Shown here piece by piece: positions 5,358 through 58,388 of a DNA stretch of 64,000 nucleotides; within the stretch, counting starts at the first letter, position 1, and each line of letters opens with the position of its first letter. A program made the position numbers and the translations under genes. The stretch is from the NCBI GenBank assembly GCA_027313145.1, contig DAHVEJ010000001.1, positions 6,698 through 70,697 on the forward strand, given 5' to 3'. The notes under the pieces are model-generated. The model searched no databases and was not told where the DNA came from. It saw only the letters and a program-made list of their open reading frames with translations. This DNA comes from Phycisphaerales bacterium (lineage in GTDB: Bacteria; Planctomycetota; Phycisphaerae; WQYP01).

Positions 5358-6959
5358 ATGTTACCAGTTTCCGAAACAAATGAGCCGGAATTGCCGCCCC
5401 CGGACGGGGATTTTGAAGAACAGATTGTCGAGGAAGTGCCGGTGGGCGAAGTAACGCTCATTTTGCCCACTGAGCCAACGGAATCGCGCATGGCCCGCCT
5501 GCACGCCAAAGCCCGTGCCCTGGAGCAGATTCCCGGCGTTTATCTGCTTAAAGATACACGGGACGTGGTGATTTACGTGGGAAAATCCCGATCCCTGCGC
5601 GACCGCGTCAGCAGCTATTTTATAGCCTCCACGGATTTAGGCCCGGTCAAACAGCGCCTGTTGGATTATGTCGTGGATTTTGACATCCTGACGTGTGATT
5701 CAGAAGTGGAAGCCCTGCTCATTGAGAGTCGGCTCATTAAAGATTTGCATCCGCGATTTAACGCCCGGCTCTCTGACGGGAAAAGCTACCCGTACCTGGA
5801 AATTACCACACGCGAGGATTTCCCCGGGGTCTATGTCACACGGCAGCCGCAAACCAGCGGCACGAAGCTTTACGGCCCTTTCATCAGCGGCTATGCGCTT
5901 AAACAGGCGGTCCTGTACATGCAGCGGGCCTTTAAGTTCCGCACATGTCATCTGGAAATTTATGAGGAAGATAACCGGCGGCGGCAATTTCGCCCATGCA
6001 TGCTCTACGCCATCAAGCAATGCACCGCTCCCTGTGCCGATAGAATTAGCCGCCCGCAATATCTGGAGGATATTGAACGACTGAAGAAATTTCTGGATTC
6101 CAGCCGGGGCGATGCGTTAAAGCAGATGACCGCGGACATGGAGGCGGCTTCCGCGGCGCTGGATTTTGAAACAGCCGCGCAGTTACGAGATCAGATTAAG
6201 GCCTTAAAATCCCTGGCGCACCGTGGCAAGGGGGCCAAAGTGATGCAGCCGGAATTGTTTTTCCAGGATCATCAGGCCGGCGTTCGGCAATTGCAGGACG
6301 TGCTGGAACTCGATGAACCCGTGCGGTCCATTGAAGCCATTGACATCGCCCATTTTCAGGGTGAAGCGACCGTTGGTTCACTGGTGAGTTTCATGGATGG
6401 CCGGCCGTTTAAGGGGGGCTACAAGCGATTCCGCATAAAAACGGTGACAGGCATTGACGATTTTCGGTGTATCGCTGAAGTGGTATCTCGGCGGTACCGG
6501 GAAGCGGGACATGGCAATGAATTGTATCCGGATGTCATACTCATTGACGGCGGTCTGGGGCAGCTTCACGCCGCGCAGGGAGCCTTTGCCCAGATGGATA
6601 TCAAGCCGCCGATGGTCATCAGTCTGGCCAAGCGTGAGGAAGAAATTTATATGCAGGGCCGAGCCACGCCGTTCAAGCTTTCCCGCACCAATGCGGCCTT
6701 GAAGCTCCTGCAATTTGCCCGTGATGAAGCCCACCGCTTTGCCCAAAGTTACCATCACCTGTTAATTGCCCGTCGGCAGTTTCAAGACACGCTGCGCGGC
6801 AGCACCGGGAAGCTTAAGATTAAGCGCAAAACCCGCTCAAAAGCAGCAGGTTCCGAGGCTTCCAAAGATAGTGCCACCCCCACAACCGATGAATTCAAAG
6901 TGTTATCCGAACAGGAAATTCGCGATCTGACCGCCAAACCGACTGCCCAACCACCTTGA
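5358..6959 (+). CDS. uvrC: Excinuclease ABC subunit C (UvrC), apparently lacking the C-terminal (HhH)2 domain.
   Basis: N-terminal GIY-YIG (GVYLLKD..VIYVGKS), UvrB-interacting region and RNase H-like endonuclease domain. It ends at 533 aa with a low-complexity basic tail. Confidence 0.88.
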   Translation: MLPVSETNEPELPPPDGDFEEQIVEEVPVGEVTLILPTEPTESRMARLHAKARALEQIPGVYLLKDTRDVVIYVGKSRSLRDRVSSYFIASTDLGPVKQRLLDYVVDFDILTCDSEVEALLIESRLIKDLHPRFNARLSDGKSYPYLEITTREDFPGVYVTRQPQTSGTKLYGPFISGYALKQAVLYMQRAFKFRTCHLEIYEEDNRRRQFRPCMLYAIKQCTAPCADRISRPQYLEDIERLKKFLDSSRGDALKQMTADMEAASAALDFETAAQLRDQIKALKSLAHRGKGAKVMQPELFFQDHQAGVRQLQDVLELDEPVRSIEAIDIAHFQGEATVGSLVSFMDGRPFKGGYKRFRIKTVTGIDDFRCIAEVVSRRYREAGHGNELYPDVILIDGGLGQLHAAQGAFAQMDIKPPMVISLAKREEEIYMQGRATPFKLSRTNAALKLLQFARDEAHRFAQSYHHLLIARRQFQDTLRGSTGKLKIKRKTRSKAAGSEASKDSATPTTDEFKVLSEQEIRDLTAKPTAQPP

Positions 6960-7063
6960 TTCAATAAAGCGATCCCGAGAGCACCGCGAGGCCCCTTCAC
7001 CGCTGCCCTGACCCGCCGTAGCGTTAGGCAGGAGCCCACCCGCTTGATCCGAAAATAGCCCTT

Positions 7064-7343
7064 GGAGACTGTCCGAGTAATGGCCGGGATTGCGATGGGG
7101 CTGAAATAGCCCGTATTCGCGGCGGAGGATCGAGCTGACTCTGGATAATGAGTCTGCGAGATCCGACAACAAAGCAGACGGGGCATTTCAGGCCCACCCG
7201 CAGGGCGGGATGCTTTTTGGCTCCCCTCTGCGGCGCAGTTCCTCGGCGTACCATCCGTGTCAGGTACGCCATCGTCGCTGCTTCTTGTATGTTGGAGCCA
7301 AAAATCATCCCGGCGCAACCTGGCCATTACTCGGACAGGCTCC
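7064..7343. repeat. Repeat family A, full-length copy: 280-bp element bounded by 22-bp imperfect terminal inverted repeats (GGAGACTGTCCGAGTAATGGCC ... GGCCATTACTCGGACAGGCTCC) with nested internal stems.
   Basis: TIRs at 7064-7085 and 7322-7343. Inner stem TTTTTGGCTCC/GGAGCCAAAAA (7214-7224 / 7294-7304) encloses hairpin GGCGTACC/GGTACGCC. A 145-bp 5' core is repeated at 32047-32192. Confidence 0.7.
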
Positions 7344-7613
7344 TAGATAACGCGGTGGGGTATTCCGGGAACAATGCGGGCAGTTCGAGGCATCAGGAAC
7401 AATGCACCATCATCTGGGCCGGGTGTCAAGAAACAGGTGACTGTCCCTAATTTCAGTGCCCGCCGCAGAATCTGGGGTAACGCTGTTTTCCCCACCCATC
7501 GCTTACATGCTTCAATTCAATTTGAACTTAACAACGCAAGCGGCTCTTGCCACGTCGTCAAGTCTTGCCTATAATCATTCATCAAAGCTCAACTACATTC
7601 TAGGAATGAAGCC

Positions 7614-9221
7614 ATGTTTCGCCATTGGGATTACCGTAGGTTCTGGATAGGTTGTTGGACGGTGCTGTTCTTATTGGCAACGGTATTGGCCATATTATGC
7701 CTCTGTATCGCGTTTCATGGCCCCCCCCCGGCCCTCAGCCTGCCTGTTCAAGGGCAAGTGACCGTGTCTCTAGCTACAGCGCTAAGTAGTTTTATCTATC
7801 ATCTCCCGTTTCGCTTGGCGATTTTTCTGCCATTATCAGCATTGTACGCAATCTGGGCGATTAAGGTGACAATCTACCTGAAATACGGCAGATTGTCTCT
7901 TGCTGAAAGCGACCTTTACCATGGTAAATCTCGCAACGTCAGTGACGAACTGCTCCCATCACGGCGTGCCCTTTTGGATATGATTATTAACACCATCAAA
8001 AATAATGATGGTCGAAGAACAATAACGGTCGAAAGCCGTTGGGGGGATGGGAAGAGTTTTCTATTGCAACAATTGGAGAAGGATCTGGGTTCGCAATTTG
8101 CGACCGTATGCCTGGACGTCTGGGAACACGCTACCGAGCAGGATCTCCATTTCGCTTTTTTCGAGGCTCTTTTGCGTAATGAGCATGTCATATTCAATCG
8201 CCGCGTGCGCGGCACCATACCCTGTCTGAGCTTACTGCTGACACTCATCCGCCGCGCCCTCTTCGGACTATCCAGCCGTTCATCGCTCTCTCTTTATTGG
8301 GCCGAAGCCGAATTCCAAGTTCCGTTACCAAGGCTGGGCTGGCAGTCGGACATGGAATCAATTTTTGGAAAGCTTAAAACCGGTAACAGGAAGGTGGTCT
8401 TTATCCTTGACGAAATCGACCGTGCCAACCCGGAAATCTGCCAGGCGGCAGTCTCATTAACCCAGCGAGCGCTGCGTGCGCCAAATGTATTCGTCGTGAT
8501 GCCATACGTTCGCGAACAAATGGAGTTCAAGGCATTCAATCCGCTGAGGCCGACTATGGCAGACATCCAGTCAACCATGTTCGGCGTGCTTTGGAAAGAT
8601 TGGAACCAGCTTCGAGATACCGAGGGTTTGAAATCCTCCCAAGGAAATCAGCTTCACTTGCAAGCTGATTGGCTTGGTTTCCCCGATAAATGGATGGGGG
8701 GCAAGATGGCCAGCAGCAGCGCTAGGCCAAAACGCCAAGGACAAAACCTCCGCGCCCGCATGGGCTACGCCAAATCGGAGAGCCCCTTCCAATATCTCAC
8801 GAATCGCCTCCACTGGTCCTTGTTAAAGCACTACCTTCAGGCCACTTCCCCGCACCAAAAACTGCTACGCTTTGCTTTCGCAGAAAAATTCCTGTTTGAC
8901 ATCCACTTCACAATCGACCCCCTGACCGACGTTGATATAGCCGCATCCCTCGTCAGTGTTTCTGAAATCCGGACGGCGCTCGGCGAGGGGATTGTAAACG
9001 ATAAAAGCTTCACGAACCTTGTTTGGGAGAAGATCAGGACCCACCCCGCGAAACCGCAAATAGCGGTGCCCACACTCAGACACTTTAAGAGTCGACTACT
9101 TGAGATGCTCCAAAAATGGAACGATAAGTCAACTACAAGCCAGCCCACTGCAGGCGATATCGCATCCTTAGCTACTATTGTGTACTTAGCCTATTTCTGG
9201 GCTGGTGCGTATGATACTTAA
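7614..9221 (+). CDS. KAP-family P-loop NTPase with N-terminal transmembrane segments.
   Basis: Walker A of KAP type (ESRWGDGKSF) and Walker B VVFILDEIDR. Four or more N-terminal TM helices. Local GC is clearly lower than its surroundings. Confidence 0.6.
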   Translation: MFRHWDYRRFWIGCWTVLFLLATVLAILCLCIAFHGPPPALSLPVQGQVTVSLATALSSFIYHLPFRLAIFLPLSALYAIWAIKVTIYLKYGRLSLAESDLYHGKSRNVSDELLPSRRALLDMIINTIKNNDGRRTITVESRWGDGKSFLLQQLEKDLGSQFATVCLDVWEHATEQDLHFAFFEALLRNEHVIFNRRVRGTIPCLSLLLTLIRRALFGLSSRSSLSLYWAEAEFQVPLPRLGWQSDMESIFGKLKTGNRKVVFILDEIDRANPEICQAAVSLTQRALRAPNVFVVMPYVREQMEFKAFNPLRPTMADIQSTMFGVLWKDWNQLRDTEGLKSSQGNQLHLQADWLGFPDKWMGGKMASSSARPKRQGQNLRARMGYAKSESPFQYLTNRLHWSLLKHYLQATSPHQKLLRFAFAEKFLFDIHFTIDPLTDVDIAASLVSVSEIRTALGEGIVNDKSFTNLVWEKIRTHPAKPQIAVPTLRHFKSRLLEMLQKWNDKSTTSQPTAGDIASLATIVYLAYFWAGAYDT

Positions 9222-15265: not shown

Positions 15266-16437
15266 AACCTTGGCGACATTTATACTATGCGCAAAATTCC
15301 TTTTTCGCCACTAGGAGCATGTCCGGGTGCTCTGTAACGCCTAAAAAAACGCCCGGCAATTCAGCAGCCAAAGGCCACCGAATTGCCGGGACAGGTCTCT
15401 CCCCCCCTCCGGGGGGGGTGAGCCTTGCGCCTTCCGCCGTGGGAAAGGCGCAAAGCCACCGCACTTCTCTCTCTTTCTCCCTCCGCAAATTGTCTTTCTA
15501 CCAGGCGCGCCCAAAGGCGCTGACGAACTTGAATCTTTGGCCGCAACTCAGGAGCGTTCCCGGGTAATACCCGGACAGGCTCCTAGACGGCCATGGCGCT
15601 CTAACTCATCCAAACCCGTCCGATGACGGATAAACAAACCTCTCGCTCCCTCCATGGGGAAATCAAGCCACAAAATTTTTCTCATACGGGCGAATACCGC
15701 GAACCATAAGCTCATCGTGAGACCCATGGATTGCTGATTTTGAATTGCGTCAGCACGCGGATTAATTTTCGCCTCTTCTCTTGTGCAGTGTTTCAGTCGA
15801 TATGTGTCTGAATTCTTGTTACCTGCACAGTTAATGTATCGGCAGATACGCCCCGGAAGCACACAAAAAATTCGCGATTTTCCCCAGCAAATTCAGGGGT
15901 TCCAATAACATTACGCCCTGATAAAACTCCGCCGGTAAAAACGGCCGGCGAAGCACTTAGAACGCCGGAGTCAGTAGATGGTGACACCGGGCGCGCCCTG
16001 CGACCAAAATATCAGTGATCGCGATTCCGACGCATTCTAACTCCTATGTGCTCATGCAACGCCTAACCCATATCTCGCCATCCCCGCAGGTGATCTGGGC
16101 AATTTTCCCGGGCGGGGTCAATATTGTTGTTTAATGGGTGGGATCGCGCCAATGACAGCCGGAACCTTCGGCTGCGGCGGGCGAGTTTTTCGCGACGCGG
16201 CGGCACATTAAATGTGCCGGCTAACATCACTGATGAGGTGCCCCCCCGCGGGTGATCTGGGCAATTTTTCATCCACCGTGCCCGGTCATGCGTATAATGG
16301 GGTGACTTGGTGGAGTGCACTGTAAAAAGTCGAGTCGGCATTGTGCCGGCATAAGTATGAATAAGTTGTTGCGGTGATGCTGATGGTGGTCATCGGTACG
16401 CTAAAACAAGGTCTCTTTTTTGTGGAGTTGCGTTATG

Positions 16438-19628: not shown

Positions 19629-19796
19629 GCGTTTCTCCTGAATAAAGGAACATCATTATCATACGTCGCGCTGAATTATTTGCCCGAATCTCTTTCACCA
19701 AGAGTTCGTTACCCGCAGTTGTTTCGTATGATATTGTGCCGACATAGAACCCGCAACATTGCAACCTCCGGGCAGTAGCGGGGTAGCGGGGTTCGT

Positions 19797-19907
19797 GGCA
19801 ATATTTCCGGGCAGGCGGCGAAATCGACGGCATACATGCCGGCGCTAAGATAATGGATGGTCTTGGAAACGCGCACGGCAGGGCCTTGCCCGGATTTATT
19901 GCCACGC
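19797..19907. repeat. Repeat family B copy 1 (111 nt), about 86% identical to 41261-41373, with imperfect inverted ends (GGCAATA.../...TATTGCC).
   Basis: Direct sequence comparison of the two intergenic segments. Both are in the same orientation. Confidence 0.7.
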
Positions 19908-20033
19908 CAGTCTCGGGGTGACCTTCGGGGCAACGTCGGGAAATTAATTCAGTGCAGATTTCGCTGTGGCCACGCCACGATTGCTAAATCGCTATAGAAT
20001 ATCTGTTGTAGGATCAGGAAAGGATCGCGATTC

Positions 20034-27840: not shown

Positions 27841-28075
27841 TCTGATTATTGATCATTGATCTTTGATCATTGACTTGGGCGCGGAAACCCCGCGGCCCGG
27901 AGCGCAGAAAGCGCCGACGGAATTGGCTTTCAGAGATTGTTTCATCCCCGGCAACCATGCTGTAATGTTCACCTTTCCACTGCTCGCCTGTTCTATTGGG
28001 CCGCCGCCCAATCCGCTCTACTTTCAACTCTCTACTGCTCGCCTGCTCTAATCGGGCCGCAGCCCGATTTGTACT
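27841..28075. repeat. Compound repeat: TGATCA cluster (27849-27872) plus two REP-like palindromic units (27978-28016 and 28033-28073, each with hairpin GGGCCGC(A/C)GCCC).
   Basis: Reverse complement of the REP doublet recurs at 36563-36660. The second unit overlaps the last codons of argF. Confidence 0.7.
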
Positions 28076-29004
28076 GCCAGCAGGGCCTTCTGGAAATGGA
28101 GGCGGTTTTCGGCTTGTTGAAATACGATGCTGCGGTCAAAATCCATGGCTTCATCGGTTATTTCCACGCCCCGATACGCCGGCAGGCAGTGCATGACTAC
28201 CGCATGGGCCGGGGCGGCGGAAATGAGTTTGGCGTTAATCTGGTAGGGGGTAAAAATCTTCATCCGCTGGGCTTTTTCAGTTTCCTGTCCCATACTGACC
28301 CAGGTGTCGGTGTAAATAATATCCGCGGCAGCAACCGCCGCCATGGGGTCGGTGGTAGCCTGAAAATCAAATCCCGGAATGCTGGATGCGGCTTGAACAT
28401 CGGACGCGTGCAGTTCATAACCAACGGGCGCGGCGATACGGAATTTCAATCCGAACACCGCGCAGGCTTCCATGAGTGATCGGGCGACATTGTTGCCATC
28501 GCCCACGTACGCCAGCGTCAGGTCGGAAAGAGATCCGAAGTGTTCGCGAATGGTCAGCAGATCGGCCATGACCTGACAGGGATGGCTGCGGTCGCTAAGG
28601 GCGTTGGTGACGGGGCGATTGCTGAAACGGGCCAGTTGCACAATGGTGTCATGGGCAAATGTCCGGGCCATAATGGCGTCACAGAATCCCGAAAGAACGC
28701 GTGCGGCGTCAGGGACGCTTTCGCGCGTGCCTAAGCCGATTTCACCGGGGGTAATGTAAATGGCGGCCCCGCCCAGATGCGTCATGGCCACTTCAAAACT
28801 CACCCGTGTGCGCAACGAGGGCTTTTCAAAAATCATGGCCAGGGTTTTGCCCGCGGCGACGGGGTCATTGCGTCCCGTGGAGCGGTATTGTGCTTTAAGC
28901 CGTTGGGCCACGGCCAGCAGATGCTCCAGCGTGGCGCGTGGCATGCCGAGAATGTCAATGAAATCAAATTTGCCGCCCGACGGCGCGCTGTTGGTCTGGT
29001 TCAT
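28048..29004 (-). CDS. argF: Ornithine carbamoyltransferase.
   Basis: STRTR carbamoyl-phosphate binding motif and an HCLP motif. Confidence 0.92.
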   Translation of the reverse strand: MNQTNSAPSGGKFDFIDILGMPRATLEHLLAVAQRLKAQYRSTGRNDPVAAGKTLAMIFEKPSLRTRVSFEVAMTHLGGAAIYITPGEIGLGTRESVPDAARVLSGFCDAIMARTFAHDTIVQLARFSNRPVTNALSDRSHPCQVMADLLTIREHFGSLSDLTLAYVGDGNNVARSLMEACAVFGLKFRIAAPVGYELHASDVQAASSIPGFDFQATTDPMAAVAAADIIYTDTWVSMGQETEKAQRMKIFTPYQINAKLISAAPAHAVVMHCLPAYRGVEITDEAMDFDRSIVFQQAENRLHFQKALLAVQIGLRPD

Positions 29005-31938: not shown

Positions 31939-32046
31939 TGTTTCGCGATTGTGCTTTGTCGCCCCTGATTTTCAGGCTTTACCCACCGCTTTAATCTCCC
32001 GATAAGCTCGTACATTTGTCTTAAGGCTACCTCGCCGCATAAGATA

Positions 32047-32192
32047 GTCTAGGTGCCTGCCTTTCCGAGTAATGGCCGGGATTGCGATGGGTTTGAAATG
32101 CGCCGTATGCGATACGGTTGATCGAGCCGACTCTGAATAAGTAAGTCCGCGAGATTCGACAACAAAGCTGGCGGGGCATTTCAGGCCACCCG
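32047..32192. repeat. Repeat family A, partial copy (5' 145-bp core only, no right terminal repeat).
   Basis: Matches the left TIR and core of 7064-7208 at about 85% identity with small indels. Confidence 0.7.
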
Positions 32193-32246
32193 CGATGCGA
32201 CGGCCCGTCGGATAATGTTTGTAGTGCTGCCGATTCAGGACGAAGT

Positions 32247-32936
32247 ATGGCCAAGACCGTAAGTGAACAACAACTTAACCCTGATGAGGGGCAGGAATAT
32301 CTTAATATTCTTGAACCCCTGCTGCAGGCGGGTGATTTAAATCGGACGGCGGAATGTATTAAACAGTTCTGGTGCGGGGGCAAACTGTGCGCATTTTTAA
32401 CGCACGACGAGCCGGAAGTTCGCCGCGCGGCGGCCATGGGATTAACCCTGGTCGGAAATACGCGAGCCATTGATCCACTGGTTACCGCGCTTCATGATAC
32501 GGATTTGCGGGTTTCTGAACTGGCCCAGGATGCGCTATGGGCGATCTGGTTTCGTGCGGGCAACGCCCGTGCCTGCGGCCACCTCAAGTGCGGAGCACAC
32601 CATCTCAAGCACGGAAATCTGGATGCGGCGATGGAAAAATTTAACCTCGCCATTCAGGTCGATCCCGGATTTGCCGAGGCGTACAATCAGCGAGCCATTG
32701 CTGAATATCTGGCGGAGCGATATACCGATTCCATGGAGGATTGTCGCCGGACATTGGCCATTATTCCGCGGCATTTCGGGGCCATGGCCGGCATGGGCCA
32801 TTGCCATGCCAACCTGGGAAATTTTCCCGATGCGCGGCAATGTTACTGCCAGGCTCTGGAAATCAACCCGCTTATGGATGGCATCGCGGCAGCTCTGGAA
32901 AAGATTCAGGCACTGCTGGAAAAACCGGCGGCTTAA
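32247..32936 (+). CDS. HEAT-repeat plus TPR-repeat protein.
   Basis: PBS-lyase HEAT-like repeats (EVRRAAAMGL.., DLRVSELAQDAL) followed by TPR-like repeats. Confidence 0.55.
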   Translation: MAKTVSEQQLNPDEGQEYLNILEPLLQAGDLNRTAECIKQFWCGGKLCAFLTHDEPEVRRAAAMGLTLVGNTRAIDPLVTALHDTDLRVSELAQDALWAIWFRAGNARACGHLKCGAHHLKHGNLDAAMEKFNLAIQVDPGFAEAYNQRAIAEYLAERYTDSMEDCRRTLAIIPRHFGAMAGMGHCHANLGNFPDARQCYCQALEINPLMDGIAAALEKIQALLEKPAA

Positions 32937-36524: not shown

Positions 36525-36665
36525 ACAATGATCAATGATCGATGAACACTGATCAATAACAGGGCAAATCGGGCTGCGGCCAGATTAGAGCAGGTGAGCA
36601 GCGCAGAGTTGAGGAGTCGAACGGATTGGGCTGCGGCCCAATAGAACAGGTGAAGTTAGAGAGTT
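36525..36665. repeat. Compound repeat: TGATCA cluster (36528-36560) plus REP-like doublet in inverted orientation relative to 27978-28073.
   Basis: CAAATCGGGCTGCGGCCAGATTAGAGCAGGTGAGCAG is the reverse complement of 28036-28073. The second unit at 36623-36660 matches 27978-28016. Confidence 0.7.
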
Positions 36666-37470: not shown

Positions 37471-37553
37471 TGGTCTTTGAGCGAAGCGCCCACGGTCGCG
37501 ATTCCGGCCATTGGTCGGACAGGCTCCCGGATTTCGTCAGGAAACGGCGCGGA

Positions 37554-41070: not shown

Positions 41071-41260
41071 TTATTATGTTGCTCCTGGAGACACACGTTG
41101 CATTTTCGACTGCGCGGACAGGCTCCCAGCCTTCAGTGCCTTGATTGTTAATTTAATGGTCGCAGGTCGTGGTCGCAAGTGCAACGGGTGATTGGCTGCC
41201 GCAGGTCCGTTGGCCGGTGCGCTGCCGCGTAAAGTATCGCGCATCGGTTTTGTTGGGCGG

Positions 41261-41373
41261 GGCAATATTTCGGGGCAGGCGGCGAAATCGACGGCATAAA
41301 TGGCGGCACTAAGAGAATGCTTGGCCTTGGAAACGCGCATCGCAGAGGCCCGGCCGAATTTATTGCCACGCCC
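41261..41373. repeat. Repeat family B copy 2.
   Basis: About 86% identity to 19797-19907, same orientation, intergenic. Confidence 0.7.
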
Positions 41374-41538
41374 GTTATGTTGTCCCTGCAGGAAAATGGC
41401 TTGCTTATTGAGAGGAGAAGGAACATACTTGAACGTGTCAATAACATGATCGCGATGATGGGCGGCGGGTGGTTGTTGGTGGGTCCGCAGCCGAGGCGCG
41501 AACGGGCGTTGGGTCTAAATGAAAAGGAAGTGTGCTGC

Positions 41539-47362: not shown

Positions 47363-47421
47363 CGGATAGAATGATAATTGCTGTCGCGGCAAATGGCAAG
47401 CGTGGCAGCGTGTCGCGTGAT

Positions 47422-47630
47422 GGAGCACCGTGGTGATAACCCGGCGGTTGGCTTGCGGCATGAGATCAACCACCGGATTACCATCCGGTGCTATGCGGAC
47501 GCGTCCGGTTAAAGAAAAAAGGTACCTGACACCTTTTTTCATGGCCGTGGCATAGAGCACCGTGGTGATAACCCGGTGGTTGGCTTGCGGCATTGGATCA
47601 ACCACCGGATTACCATTCGGTGCTCTTGAG
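47422..47630. repeat. Two 75-bp direct repeats (47422-47495 and 47557-47630, about 90% identical). Each contains hairpin CACCGG-ATTACCAT-CCGGTG. They are separated by an A/T-flanked bidirectional terminator-like hairpin (47509-47536).
   Basis: Direct reading. Lies in the divergent intergenic region between the ArsR-methyltransferase gene and manA. Confidence 0.65.
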
Positions 47631-52900: not shown

Positions 52901-53514
52901 TCAAGCAGAAATGCCGCGACCTGAATCTGCTGCGCCCGCAGGTGGTTTACGGCTACTTCTGGGTTCAGGCGGAAAAAAATGATTTAATTGTTTATGCCGA
53001 GGATAAAAAAACGCAGCGTCTGCGTTTTCATTTTCCCCGGCAACCGGGGCGCAAACGTTGGTGCCTTTCGGACTTTTTCCGTTCCGTGGATTCCGGCGAA
53101 ATGGACGTTCTGGCGTTGCAGTGCGTGACGGCGGGATCGGCCGTGGCCCCGTATGAAAAACAACTGTTTGAGCAGGGTGATTTCACCGAGTATCTCTACA
53201 TTCACGGGATGGGCGTACAGATTGCGGAAGCGTTGGCGGAAATGTGGCATAAACGCGTTCGCCAGGAATTGGGCATTGCGGATAAAGATGGTCCCACCAT
53301 GCGCGATATTTTCGCCTGCCATTTTCAAGGCTGCCGCTACAGCTTCGGCTACCCGGCCTGCCCGGATTTACAGGATGAAGAAAAGCTTTTCGCCCTGTTG
53401 GATCCCGCGCGCATCGGCTGCACATTATCCGAAAATTGGATGATTCAGCCGGAGCAATCCACCTCCGCGATGATCGTTCACCACCCCGAAGCCCGTTATT
53501 TTAACGTGCTGTAG
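49966..53514 (+). CDS. metH: Cobalamin-dependent methionine synthase.
   Basis: All four modules (Hcy-binding, pterin-binding, B12-binding and AdoMet activation) in 1182 aa. Confidence 0.97.
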   Translation: MSKKIENQNTSGLKQGAAGPMESHPFLDVLKHRVMVFDGGLGTQIFAANLTLADFNNLENCPEVLVLSRPDVIQSIHESYYAAGSDTVETDTFGASKIVLAEFGLQDQCREINRKAATLARNAANKFSTPDRPRFVAGSIGPGTKAITLGNTTFDIMHDSYLEQVRGLLDGGVDAILIETCFDLLQAKVAVIAATDAMEEMGVRVPIMVQVTMETVGTMLLGTEMNAVITTLEALPVDVIGMNCATGPELMRPHVETLSQNCTRYLSVQPNAGLPVLHEGRTHFPLGAAELAKAHVEFVQQFGVNIVGGCCGTTPEHIRAVAAAVAQLKPAVRSAHGRKMDAAHATISSLYSAVDARQDNSILIIGERTNTNGSKKFRDCLLAADWDTLTAIGREQVKEGSHVVDVCVDYVGRNGVPDMTDIVRRFAKEVTAPLMIDSTQLDVIEAGLQAAPGKCIVNSINLEDGEEKLARMAALLKRYGAAVVAGTIDEDKIEAMAKTADRKIEIAKRLYDLLVNKYGIPETNIYFDPLIFPIVTGQEEVRRLALETIDGIRRISEELPNCHTTLGLSNVSFGLKPYARLVLNSAFFNECVKAGLTSAIVHASKILPQNKIDPEHYQWALDLIYDRQREDYKPLQLLTNLGAPAKVAEATEQLPLEEKLRRHIIDGDKQKLSEHLDQAMTKYAPLDIINDHLLAGMKVVGDLFGSGQMQLPFVLQSAEVMKAAVAYLQPFMPKSEGQSRGRMVLATVKGDVHDIGKNLVDIILSNNGYTVVNLGIKQPIANIVQAAKEHNAQIIGLSGLLVKSTLVMRDDLQELNRLGIDIPVILGGAALTRGYVEKDLRDIYKGPLFYGKDAFEGLRVMDHVATGKISEILVATGESRQQADLRAKAGASPVTPETDIPKITCDDYANSGIRTDVAVPALPFYGSRVVTDIPVDAVFPYIDEVALFRGQWQFKSGTMPRDEFRQWTESHVRPIYNRIKQKCRDLNLLRPQVVYGYFWVQAEKNDLIVYAEDKKTQRLRFHFPRQPGRKRWCLSDFFRSVDSGEMDVLALQCVTAGSAVAPYEKQLFEQGDFTEYLYIHGMGVQIAEALAEMWHKRVRQELGIADKDGPTMRDIFACHFQGCRYSFGYPACPDLQDEEKLFALLDPARIGCTLSENWMIQPEQSTSAMIVHHPEARYFNVL

Positions 53515-53789
53515 CTGCGCCGCGTGGCCATAGCGCTGCACCAGATGCCGCATCGCACGGCAAATTGCGGGTAGAAAAAGAGGCTGACCTGGCCGTGATA
53601 AAATACCCATGGGTAATAATTGGCCGGAAGTATGCAGGAGGCACTACCCATTATCGACGACTGTTCGTATGGGGCGGATATTCCAATTGTCCAAGGGTAT
53701 TTCTCAACAGCACGTGAAAATCGGCGTGATTCCATCTGCATGGTCAAGGCCGACCATTTACTCTTGCGTAACGAAAAGGAGTATAAACG

Positions 53790-54512
53790 ATGACGGTCAT
53801 TTCTCTTTGTCTTGATACGCTGGCAGGCACAGCTCCATCGCCCCCGTCTCCGGACGCGCAAACTGTGAAGTTTATTATCGATCAAGTGGAGCACTTCTAC
53901 GGTGAGATGTTCCTTGGGATGACTGCCATTTACGCCCTAATCACTGCTATTTTCGGCTATCTTCTGCCTAAACAGCGTCTTAAATCCCTCCATAAAAAAG
54001 TCCAGGGGGCGCGCGCGGCGGCCCAACATGCCGTTACGACCATCGACCAAAAGCTTGCCTCCGCCAAGGAGGAGGTTGCCGTCGCTGTGGAACAGCTTCG
54101 GCACCTGACAGCTGCTGTCATGCGTTTTAACACGGGCCTGTTAGTGTACGCATCCGGCGCTCGAAAGGTGGAGATCGCCAGCATGAAAAGTGGCAGTCTG
54201 TCACAAAATCCCGATCTAATCCCTGCAAGCAAGGAAATGCTCATCGCCGCTCATGAATTCTTCGCCGCGGGTGATCGCCGAGCCTTCGGTGTCGCAGTAG
54301 GGCTTTCCATCATCTGGCTTAAAGAGCACTACAAATTCGCCCCGATTCCGTCAGATCGCCAGTTCCACGCCCTCATTGCTCAGACACAAAAGGAATACAG
54401 TGAAGCCATAAACCAGAGGGGCTGGGGAGAAACACCGGAATTACAACCATCCGAACAATTGGATTGGTTTCTCGGCTTGGGGTGCCGCAATGAAGCCGAA
54501 CCACCAAAATAA
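53790..54512 (+). CDS. Hypothetical protein (240 aa) with one TM segment and a coiled-coil region, located inside the metH-associated insert.
   Basis: ORF with a good RBS (AAAGGAG). Its first about 15 codons are paralogous to the ORF at 58240. Confidence 0.5.
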   Translation: MTVISLCLDTLAGTAPSPPSPDAQTVKFIIDQVEHFYGEMFLGMTAIYALITAIFGYLLPKQRLKSLHKKVQGARAAAQHAVTTIDQKLASAKEEVAVAVEQLRHLTAAVMRFNTGLLVYASGARKVEIASMKSGSLSQNPDLIPASKEMLIAAHEFFAAGDRRAFGVAVGLSIIWLKEHYKFAPIPSDRQFHALIAQTQKEYSEAINQRGWGETPELQPSEQLDWFLGLGCRNEAEPPK

Positions 54513-57257: not shown

Positions 57258-57584
57258 AGTAATTTCTGCATCCACGGGATGGGCGTACAGATTGCGGAAG
57301 CGTTGGCGGAAATGTGGCATAAACGCGTGCGCCAGGAATTGGGCATTGCGGATAAAGATGGTCCCACCATGCGCGATATTTTCGCCTGTCATTTTCAAGG
57401 CTGCCGCTACAGCTTCGGCTACCCGGCCTGCCCGGATTTACAGGATGAAGAAAAGCTTTTCGCCCTGTTGGATCCCGCGCGCATCGGCTGCACATTATCC
57501 GAAAATTGGATGATTCAGCCGGAGCAATCCACCTCCGCGATGATCGTTCACCACCCCGAAGCCCGGTATTTTAACGTGCTGTAG
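57258..57584 (+). pseudogene. Duplicated 3' fragment of metH (last about 108 codons), near-identical to 53190-53514.
   Basis: Protein tail HGMGVQIAEALAEMWHKRVRQELG...HHPEARYFNVL is identical. Only a few synonymous nucleotide differences. Homology continues about 60 nt past the stop codon. Confidence 0.85.
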
Positions 57585-58144: not shown

Positions 58145-58388
58145 TGCGGGACCCCCATGTTCATTTCAAATCTGTTTCGTGATGATACGGACAGCGATGG
58201 AATACGGCAACGCTTGCCTAACGAAAAGGAGTATAAACCATGACGGGCTTTTCTTTTTGCTCTGGCGCGCTGGCAGGAAGTGGAAATCATGCGGACAAAA
58301 TGCCTGTAGATGACGGTAACTACGGACGGATGGTACAACTATGCGAACGACCATGCGCAGCAAGACCCATACGAGCACCGGTGCGCCG

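Follow-up and report, generated by a model that had tools for sequence, protein, structure and literature searches.

A multi-size MITE family of Phycisphaerae-type genomes, very probably mobilised in trans by an IS1182-family transposase

Few MITEs of the IS1182 family have been described. MITEPye1 of Paracoccus yeei, which is related to ISPye18, carries 18-bp terminal inverted repeats (TIRs), 4-bp repeats and a long stem-loop (PMC11578231), and the ISMac2-related MITEs of Methanosarcina acetivorans, also of the IS1182 family, measure 160-169 bp, have TIRs of 25-26 bp, reach 7-14 copies and are flanked by direct repeats of 4 bp (or 0) (PMC3852290). Among the IS1182-family elements themselves, ISPse1 generates 4-bp direct repeats (PMC3281130), and ISPsy36 uses the palindromic 4-bp target GGCC (PMC8027508). 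The elements described here, which we call family A, resemble MITEPye1 in being non-coding and intergenic, with IS1182-type TIRs of ~18 bp, short (4-bp) direct repeats, a stem-loop and presumed mobilisation in trans; they differ from it in sequence, in host phylum and in abundance, with dozens of copies per MAG as against 1-3 per chromosome for MITEPye1, and unlike MITEPye1 they contain nested elements and come in several size classes, from 49 to ~370 bp. The ISMac2-related MITEs belong to the same class, that of IS1182 deletion derivatives, but have an archaeal host and an unrelated sequence.

A second group of comparable elements is formed by the IS630-type MITEs, such as RUP of S. pneumoniae, Correia/NEMIS of Neisseria and Nezha of cyanobacteria, whose ends match IS630-family or unknown transposases. 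Family A shares with them the size range, hairpin-forming TIRs, an apparent TA duplication, a high copy number and a location near genes; unlike theirs, however, its ends match IS1182 elements. ISMno8 and ISMno38, together with more than 120 metagenomic elements, have the terminal sequence of family A and its CTA...TAG flanks, but they are autonomous (1.4-1.7 kb, with a transposase of 417-477 aa), share no sequence with the family-A interior, and occur in other phyla (Alphaproteobacteria, Nitrospira). Family A is seemingly a MITE ordinary in kind and one that appears to be uncatalogued: no paper on such elements in Planctomycetes was found, and a literature search with the terminal 12-mers returned unrelated primers only. 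It would add high-copy, multi-size MITEs of IS1182 type in Planctomycetota to the few described.

We analysed a 64,000-nucleotide stretch of DNA (the window), in which the one full copy, A1, has uvrC (5358-6959) on one side and a KAP NTPase gene (7614-9221) on the other, standing 270 bp upstream of the latter. The sequence of A1, GGAGACTGTCCGAGTAATGGCCGGG...CCTGGCCATTACTCGGACAGGCTCC (7064-7343), is 80-93% identical over its entire length to 37 full copies from Phycisphaerae/Planctomycetota MAGs, its nearest relative being a copy in WY1.bin60 (93%). Its parts and immediate flanks are as follows.

7061-7063, no strand: left flank of A1, reading CTT as a degenerate form of CTA and forming the left half of the CTAG/TA target duplication.
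7064-7343, plus strand: full copy A1 of the putative MITE family A; 280 bp, GGAGAC...GGCTCC, bounded by TIRs and without a conserved ORF.
7064-7096, plus strand: left TIR of A1, GGAGACTGTCCGAGTAATGGCCGGGATTGCGAT, which pairs with 7313-7343.
7096-7196, plus strand: left internal hairpin module, with the inverted repeat 7096-7114/7178-7196; helices 3-6 of the consensus fold.
7197-7218, plus strand: terminator-like site, a small G+C hairpin with a T-run after it, CCCGCAGGGCGGG ATGCTTTTTG.
7206-7312, plus strand: right internal hairpin module, with a 19-nt stem at 7206-7224/7294-7312 and an inner hairpin at 7245-7252/7263-7270.
7313-7343, plus strand: right TIR of A1, ...GGCCATTACTCGGACAGGCTCC, which pairs with the left TIR.
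7344-7346, no strand: right flank of A1, reading TAG and forming the right half of the CTAG/TA target duplication.

An earlier note on this DNA had described a 280-bp unit with terminal inverted repeats and nested internal stems, and on this point it was sound. A repeat finder places a 28-nt inverted repeat (89%) at 7061-7088/7319-7346, the TIRs proper being ~31 nt long; inside them lie a 19-nt repeat at 7206-7224/7294-7312 (95%), which includes the 11-bp stem TTTTTGGCTCC/GGAGCCAAAAA that had been reported, and the 8-nt hairpin at 7245-7252/7263-7270 (100%). A further 19-nt repeat at 7096-7114/7178-7196 (84%) was absent from the list given there. The perfect 11-bp inner stem is specific to A1, the family consensus being mismatched at that place. 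As a single strand, A1 folds at -158.2 kcal/mol, compared with -103.8 ± 5.2 kcal/mol for dinucleotide shuffles (z = -10.6), and the complementary strand gives z = -10.0; the predicted shape is multi-branched, with a closing stem, two long hairpins and the small G+C hairpin. A1 is complete and slightly decayed: its left TIR departs from the family consensus at two positions (7068 and 7071), and CTT stands in place of CTA at its left flank.

Genomes, one per species and divided into 8-kb blocks, were searched for family copies with the left-end 20-mer GAGTAATGGCCGGGATTGCG, and at least 102 blocks matched. Among the matches listed, at least 98 blocks belong to 11 species-level Planctomycetota/Phycisphaerae MAGs, and the richest of these hold at least 23 (JA4.bin8), 19 (ZJ5.bin40), 15 (clean1592), 12 (BP7.bin26) and 10 (KM4364-03) blocks. 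Family A comprises well over a hundred copies across Phycisphaerae-type planctomycete genomes. Full copies are 90-96% identical to one another within a MAG and 82-99% between MAGs.

When units bounded by both end motifs were collected from the fetched blocks, 69 non-redundant copies of 49-373 bp were obtained, and these fall into discrete size classes. Twenty-six measure 275-280 bp (~278 bp), 12 measure 288-294 bp (~289 bp) and carry an extra CCCGGCGCGCCGGGA palindrome, and 6 measure 364-373 bp (~367 bp); at the lower end of the range there are 22 copies of 49 bp and 2 of 57 bp. The 49-bp minis consist of TIR, loop and TIR only (GGAGCCTGTCCGAGTAAT-GGCCGGGATTGCG-ATTACTCGGACAGGCTCC, with 18-nt arms and a 13-nt loop). 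The ~367-bp form consists of the 278-bp element and, nested within it, a family-B MITE, which is found at a similar position (consensus ~216-231) in 6 different loci, and the composite has therefore been copied as a unit. Some copies consist of the left half only, and these stop near the equivalent of 7197-7218 in A1 (consensus 136-152). The length variants of 277, 278, 280 and 289 bp disrupt any reading frame.

Variation along the element is uneven. The TIRs are its least variable part, with a column entropy of 0.04-0.13 against 0.20-0.38 in the interior, and the consensus TIR helix (helix 1, 30 pairs) is 98.7% paired in 38 copies; the right internal module is the most variable region (entropy 0.375).

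Similarity among the copies ends sharply at GGAGCC on the left and at GGCTCC on the right, and immediately outside these limits the flanks are strongly biased: C (31/38), T (32/38) and A (34/38) precede GGAGCC, and T (36/38), A (28/38) and G (30/38) follow GGCTCC, deviations being mostly CCAG at the left flank and CTGG at the right one. Beyond 3 nt the flanks are random, and no longer or shifted direct repeat was seen under any boundary model. One copy (L061) is inserted in another multicopy repeat, whose uninterrupted paralogues read ...GAAGCTAGAAG... (GCTAGA) or ...GTTAGR...; the filled site, ...GAAGC-CA-[element]-TA-GAAG..., is 2 bases longer than these paralogues, and the evidence from empty sites is this one comparison, which is paralogous rather than orthologous. 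As far as sequence can tell, family A inserts at CTAG with a short duplication. There are two equivalent readings, a 2-bp TA duplication around GGAGCC...GGCTCC and a 4-bp CTAG duplication around GAGCC...GGCTC, and they are inseparable because the target is palindromic and the element starts with G and finishes with C.

Family-A copies cluster on TAG stop codons. The palindromic CTAG and the G...C termini together restore TAG on either side of an insertion, which is a plausible reason why many copies sit on stop codons. The 49-bp minis lie mostly at gene 3' ends (19 vs 4), because CTAG overlaps TAG stop codons.

The same termini are found on complete, autonomous insertion sequences. When viral contigs were scanned for the 18-nt terminus, 3 matches came up, and in 2 of them an ORF (MSKTFRPWDVDQ...) begins ~60 nt further on. 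Metagenomes were then searched with a pattern made of the TIR, N{45,75} and a motif coding for WDVDQ, which recovered more than 120 loci, 60 of which contain complete ISs of 1416-1656 bp, each with a single ORF, mostly of 417-477 aa. The ends of these ISs read GGAGCCTGTCCGAGTAAT... and ...(A/G)TTAC(T/C)CGGAC(A/G)GGCTCC. All 54 distinct autonomous IS sites are flanked by CTA...TAG. The transposases score 362-380 bits against NCBIfam NF033551, 'IS1182 family transposase' (cutoff 270), all IS5 models lying far below cutoff, and contain the Pfam domains DUF772, DDE_Tnp_1 and DDE_Tnp_1_6. Among annotated elements, ISMno8 and ISMno38 of Methylobacterium nodulans ORS 2060 come nearest to them, with 60-63% amino-acid identity.

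At the nucleotide level the agreement is confined to the ends. On plasmid pMNOD02, ISMno8 reads cagCTA|GGAGCCTGTCCGAGTAAGCG...GTTACTCGGACGGGCTCC|TAGtca, and its left end equals the family-A consensus terminus GGAGCCTGTCCGAGTAA at 17/17 nt; the right end (IRR) of one metagenomic IS (L116) shares 24 consecutive identical nt with the left terminus of family A and is ~96% identical (23/24) to the right terminus of A1. Over its first 17-24 nt the family-A consensus TIR is the same, base for base, as the ends of ISMno8 and the metagenomic IS1182-family elements. No similarity between family A and the autonomous ISs was found past the terminal 18-29 nt, so no direct parent of family A was identified.

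The search for a mobilising transposase elsewhere, which the earlier note had recommended, came back empty: tblastn against the window and against ~600 kb of MAG DNA with MITEs gave no IS1182-family transposase and no compatible autonomous IS, and none of the TIR pairs 0.6-3 kb apart in those ~600 kb encloses a transposase. Neither family A nor any other window sequence co-occurs in the metagenome loci of the autonomous ISs, and the nearest named hosts found in a homologue search with the L116-type transposase are Nitrospira, not Phycisphaerae. Several candidates were rejected: two TIR pairs (L025, L086) turned out to flank unrelated genes by means of two separate copies, a third (L037) encloses a group II intron within a family-A copy, and the ORFs beside truncated left ends (L073, L086, L102, L100, L090, L083, L050, L028, L087, L098) are ordinary host genes. 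MAG assemblies usually lose IS copies, and the absence of a transposase from the MAG blocks is weak evidence for that reason.

Taken together, we consider it very probable that family A is a non-coding, non-autonomous MITE on which an IS1182-family DDE transposase acts in trans. Its members are short, lack a transposase or any conserved ORF, are bounded by TIRs, occupy many loci and show a target duplication (in one comparison), and they match the autonomous ISs both in their TIRs and in the CTA/TAG flanks. The identity of the family ends with IS1182 element ends points to the IS1182 family as the type of partner, and we infer that such a transposase, present in the host lineage now or at some time in the past, would have moved these copies. 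Provided in trans, it would recognise and cleave the ~18-31-nt TIRs and place the element at the palindrome CTAG. The interior, that is, the two hairpin modules and the small G+C hairpin, would be passenger DNA dispensable for mobility, because the 49-bp TIR-loop-TIR derivative has been amplified alone; this mini may set the minimal transposition substrate and is a candidate substrate for an ISMno8-type transposase.

Two points speak against a pure passenger view: the left internal module is more conserved than might be expected of neutral passenger DNA, and compensatory pair changes are in small excess (6 vs 1.0 in shuffles). It is conceivable, if doubtful, that the left module (7096-7196 and its relatives) is more than a passenger, namely a selected structured RNA or DNA cargo. 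In the first version, a transcript from the left module would end at the adjacent hairpin and T-run; in the second, the structure of the module would also serve a group II intron as its specific homing site. One and the same intron is present in 3 independent related family-A copies, in all of them at exactly the same site (consensus 102/103), which corresponds in A1 to 7165|7166, GAGATCCG^ACAACAAAG. If this were true, the MITE would be a vehicle by which an intron 'safe haven' and a functional module spread in Phycisphaerae genomes. The homing of a group II intron into family A, like the clustering of copies on TAG stop codons, may be worth a closer look.

It has also been proposed, in the same earlier note, that the repeats are either a small structured RNA family or a MITE, and of these two the MITE has prevailed, by its sharp ends, its TIR-only derivatives, its CTAG target and its IS1182 termini. 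That family A is a non-coding RNA gene family or a cis-regulatory RNA, the nested helices being the product and the repeats the gene copies, we regard as improbable. Both strands fold very stably (z = -10.6 and -10.0), the left module shows good conservation, and the terminator-like hairpin and T-run at 7197-7218 would fit a transcript. A covariation count, run on 38 full copies that are 82-99% identical and accordingly of low power, found two-sided changes in 6 of 84 consensus pairs, where shuffles give 1.0 ± 0.9 and slid controls 0-3, and all 6 compensatory pairs lie in internal helices; these 6 pairs amount, however, to 8 cells, each in single sequences, with none in the 30-pair TIR helix, and of the RNAalifold energy of the 38 copies (-129.1 kcal/mol) the share of covariation is only -1.17. 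In a strand-neutral pair set, the plus strand has more G-U than A-C pairs (15 vs 6), but the excess is non-significant and the structure was built from the same sequences. The full copies have no orientation preference relative to neighbouring genes (left 14 vs 11, right 14 vs 13), no Rfam match was found for the window at the gathering threshold or for the element at E <= 10, and no promoter-like site was found within the element. Moreover, the 49-bp minis multiplied without the interior, and the termini are transposon ends with a target duplication.

The preferred reading, an IS1182-type MITE, has also to be set against other transposase families. The flanks can be read as C-TA-[GGAGCC...GGCTCC]-TA-G, with TA duplicated inside CTAG, and a TA duplication is the classic signature of IS630, reported for some IS427-group elements too; a MITE of IS630/Tc1-mariner type (like RUP, Correia and Nezha) or of IS5/IS427 type would account for this. 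The IS630 reading was our initial hypothesis and was abandoned after IS1182 elements with identical ends turned up. The same 17-24-nt termini and CTA/TAG flanks are carried by elements with an IS1182 transposase that scores far under the IS5 cutoffs, none of the elements seen with these ends was of IS630 or IS427 type, and TA within CTAG cannot by itself separate transposase families, so that an IS630 or IS5 origin is very unlikely.

The partner suggested in the earlier note, a RAYT of the IS200/IS605 type (a Y1 transposase) moving a REP- or REPIN-like palindrome, is hardly credible: the 49-bp minis are simple hairpins, superficially REPIN-like, and lie mainly at gene 3' ends, but that bias is accounted for by the overlap of CTAG with TAG stop codons, the arms are not palindromic REPs and lack a GTAG/CGTC tag (compare PMC3733652), no RAYT gene flanked by 49-bp units was seen, a target duplication is present, the ends match a DDE IS family (IS1182), and a Pfam scan of ten neighbouring ORFs gave no Y1-type ORF or domain.

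Reading family A as an IS1182-type MITE also brings order to several other motifs of the window. The 12-nt end motif CGGACAGGCTCC, whose recurrence had been pointed out before, occurs 6 times with at most 1 mismatch, where 0.32 occurrences are expected and 0 of 100 shuffles reach 6; at 2 mismatches the extra matches are at chance level only. Apart from A1, the features concerned are the following.

15314-15583, plus strand: second MITE, E2, with the same termini as family A, GGAGCATGTCCGGGTG... / ...CCCGGACAGGCTCC; flanks CTA (15311-15313) and TAG (15584-15586).
32052-32193, plus strand: family-A copy A2, a decayed left end (3-nt insertion in the TIR) and the left module; the right half is missing.
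37500-37527, minus strand: solo A-type left end, a remnant, GGAGCCTGTCCGACCAATGGCCGGAATC on the minus strand; A-type TIR sequence.
41115-41126, plus strand: unpaired 12-nt end motif, CGGACAGGCTCC, with CAG next to it on the right; either a remnant or a match by chance.

Three occurrences of the motif had been taken for solo ends. Two of them, at 37516-37527 and 41115-41126 (a few bases from the values first given), are unpaired: the end at 37500-37527 is 79% identical to the right end of family A over 29 nt and has no partner within range, and the motif at 41115-41126 shows no more similarity to family A. The third, at 15572-15583, is not solo, being paired with an inverted copy at 15314-15325 (CGGACATGCTCC) to delimit E2, which is 270 bp long and has perfect CTA/TAG flanks. 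The interior of E2 has no similarity to family A, and no further copies of it were found among the fetched loci. The mini-hairpin near 15555, which had been likened to a collapsed TIR pair, has to be reinterpreted as well; CCCGGGTAATACCCGG (15559-15574) is the inner portion of the right TIR of E2, and true collapsed pairs are the 49-bp minis of related genomes. Besides family A, this end type has also produced E2 and the remnant at 37500-37527, and one common terminus unites the scattered motifs of the window, two MITEs and two solo ends.

The second copy, A2, is real, as had been claimed: over 32059-32193 it matches the left 134 nt of A1 at 84% identity, after which similarity ends, and it is 84-89% identical to positions 4-136 of the family consensus. 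CTA at 32049-32051 directly precedes A2, which lies upstream of a gene for a TPR/HEAT protein and is a dead half copy. The proposal that full copies mark the edge of a KAP island finds no support, A2 being a decayed half copy 25 kb away and the GC content staying flat (0.525-0.558) over 6-34 kb; A1 and A2 were likewise discarded as borders of an island or a composite transposon, there being no GC shift and A2 having no right end.

Open reading frames across the two copies, at 6782-7327 (minus strand, 181 aa) and 32027-32470 (minus strand, 147 aa), are accidental and extend beyond the element. They yield the same peptide (PEMPRLLCCRISQT / PEMPRQLCCRISRT) because the underlying DNA is repeated, which agrees with the earlier remark that both copies had been falsely translated. 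An exact-sequence look-up of the proteins near A1 found only a 4-kb Logan contig and no empty site; this contig begins downstream of A1, and the assembly therefore broke at A1. Family A accounts for spurious ORFs and contig breaks in Phycisphaerae MAGs, and its relevance lies mainly in annotation and assembly, the general view of transposon function being unaltered. The family-B repeat, found nested in the ~367-bp form of family A, is also present in the window, at 47412-47492 and 47551-47626.

The family-A MITE, a non-coding element with IS1182-type ends, appears to serve as a homing site for a group II intron. Three family-A copies with differing flanks contain the inserted intron, and the junction is identical in all of them (GAGATCCG^ACAACAAAG, consensus positions 102/103), as is the orientation; it is this recurrence of one exact position and orientation in copies with different surroundings that leads us to read the MITE as a homing site. 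The equivalent site in the full copy of the window, A1, lies at 7165/7166. The intron-bearing copies, found among the fetched genome loci with a family-A 20-mer match (L-numbers), are:

L037:58-2340, minus strand, group II intron in family A
L081:1-224, group II intron in family A
L045:1-142, group II intron in family A

The intron matches RF02005 (D1-D4, 59.8 bits) and RF00029 (44.2 bits) in Rfam, and its ORF of 525 aa is RT-like. L037 is assigned to an Acidobacteriaceae bin; it is probably a mis-binned contig.

Five independent copies of family A retain only the left half, and their breaks, taken as BLAST end points, all fall within ~16 nt (consensus 136-152):

Window 32052-32193, left-half-only copy A2
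L092:998-1147, left-half-only copy
L058:4909-5059, left-half-only copy
L039:152-298, left-half-only copy
L089:3119-3261, left-half-only copy

This common break point adjoins a small G+C hairpin with a T-run, and it may have arisen by hairpin-promoted deletion, by a one-ended event or from a modular origin of the element.

Because the CTAG target and the G...C termini of the element restore TAG on both sides, family-A insertion onto a stop codon would be neutral. By crude ORF calling, the junction TAG is the stop codon of the adjacent ORF in ~10 of 69 copies (24 minis, which are short TIR-loop-TIR forms, and 45 longer units), and a gene 3' end lies no more than 100 bp from a 49-bp mini in 19 cases, a 5' end in 4 (24 mini copies, L004-L095). 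Where flanks of the 69 copies depart from CTAG, the left one has mostly changed from CTAGG to CCAGG and the right one from CCTAG to CCTGG, a direction of change that would be expected for very-short-patch-type repair or CTAG avoidance rather than for random decay.

Family B, a small hairpin repeat of ~80 nt (GAGCACCGTGGTGATAACCCGG...CCGGATTACCATCCGGTGCT), is nested within family A at roughly one position in six related loci (L021, L027, L043, L046, L055 and L056). The window holds two copies in tandem, 132 bp apart:

Window 47412-47492, family B copy 1
Window 47551-47626, family B copy 2

An unrelated palindrome, CGCAATCCCGGC-GCGAGTAATG-GCCGGGATTGCG, on two contigs of one Chitinophagaceae MAG also contains the 20-mer with which the genomes were scanned, so that another kind of hairpin element shares part of the interior of the family-A TIR (GCCGGGATTGCG):

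L019:1046-1080, palindrome with the 20-mer
L079:41-75, palindrome with the 20-mer

Other repeats were observed in the window. A further dispersed repeat of 118 nt (19794-19911 versus 41258-41375, 85% identity) has relatives in L002, L055, L085, L087 and L088. An inverted pair of ~90 nt each (27984-28076 versus 36560-36653, 8.5 kb apart; 87% identity over 53 nt and 90% over 39 nt) brackets the region 28-36.6 kb; tandem sub-repeats are present in both members, and L022, L059 and L069 carry relatives. Finally, two copies of a 300-nt segment lie 4.07 kb from each other (53192-53491 versus 57262-57561, 98% identity), and close by a 68-nt segment is also doubled (53760-53827 versus 58210-58277, 82%), which together look like a recent partial gene duplication.
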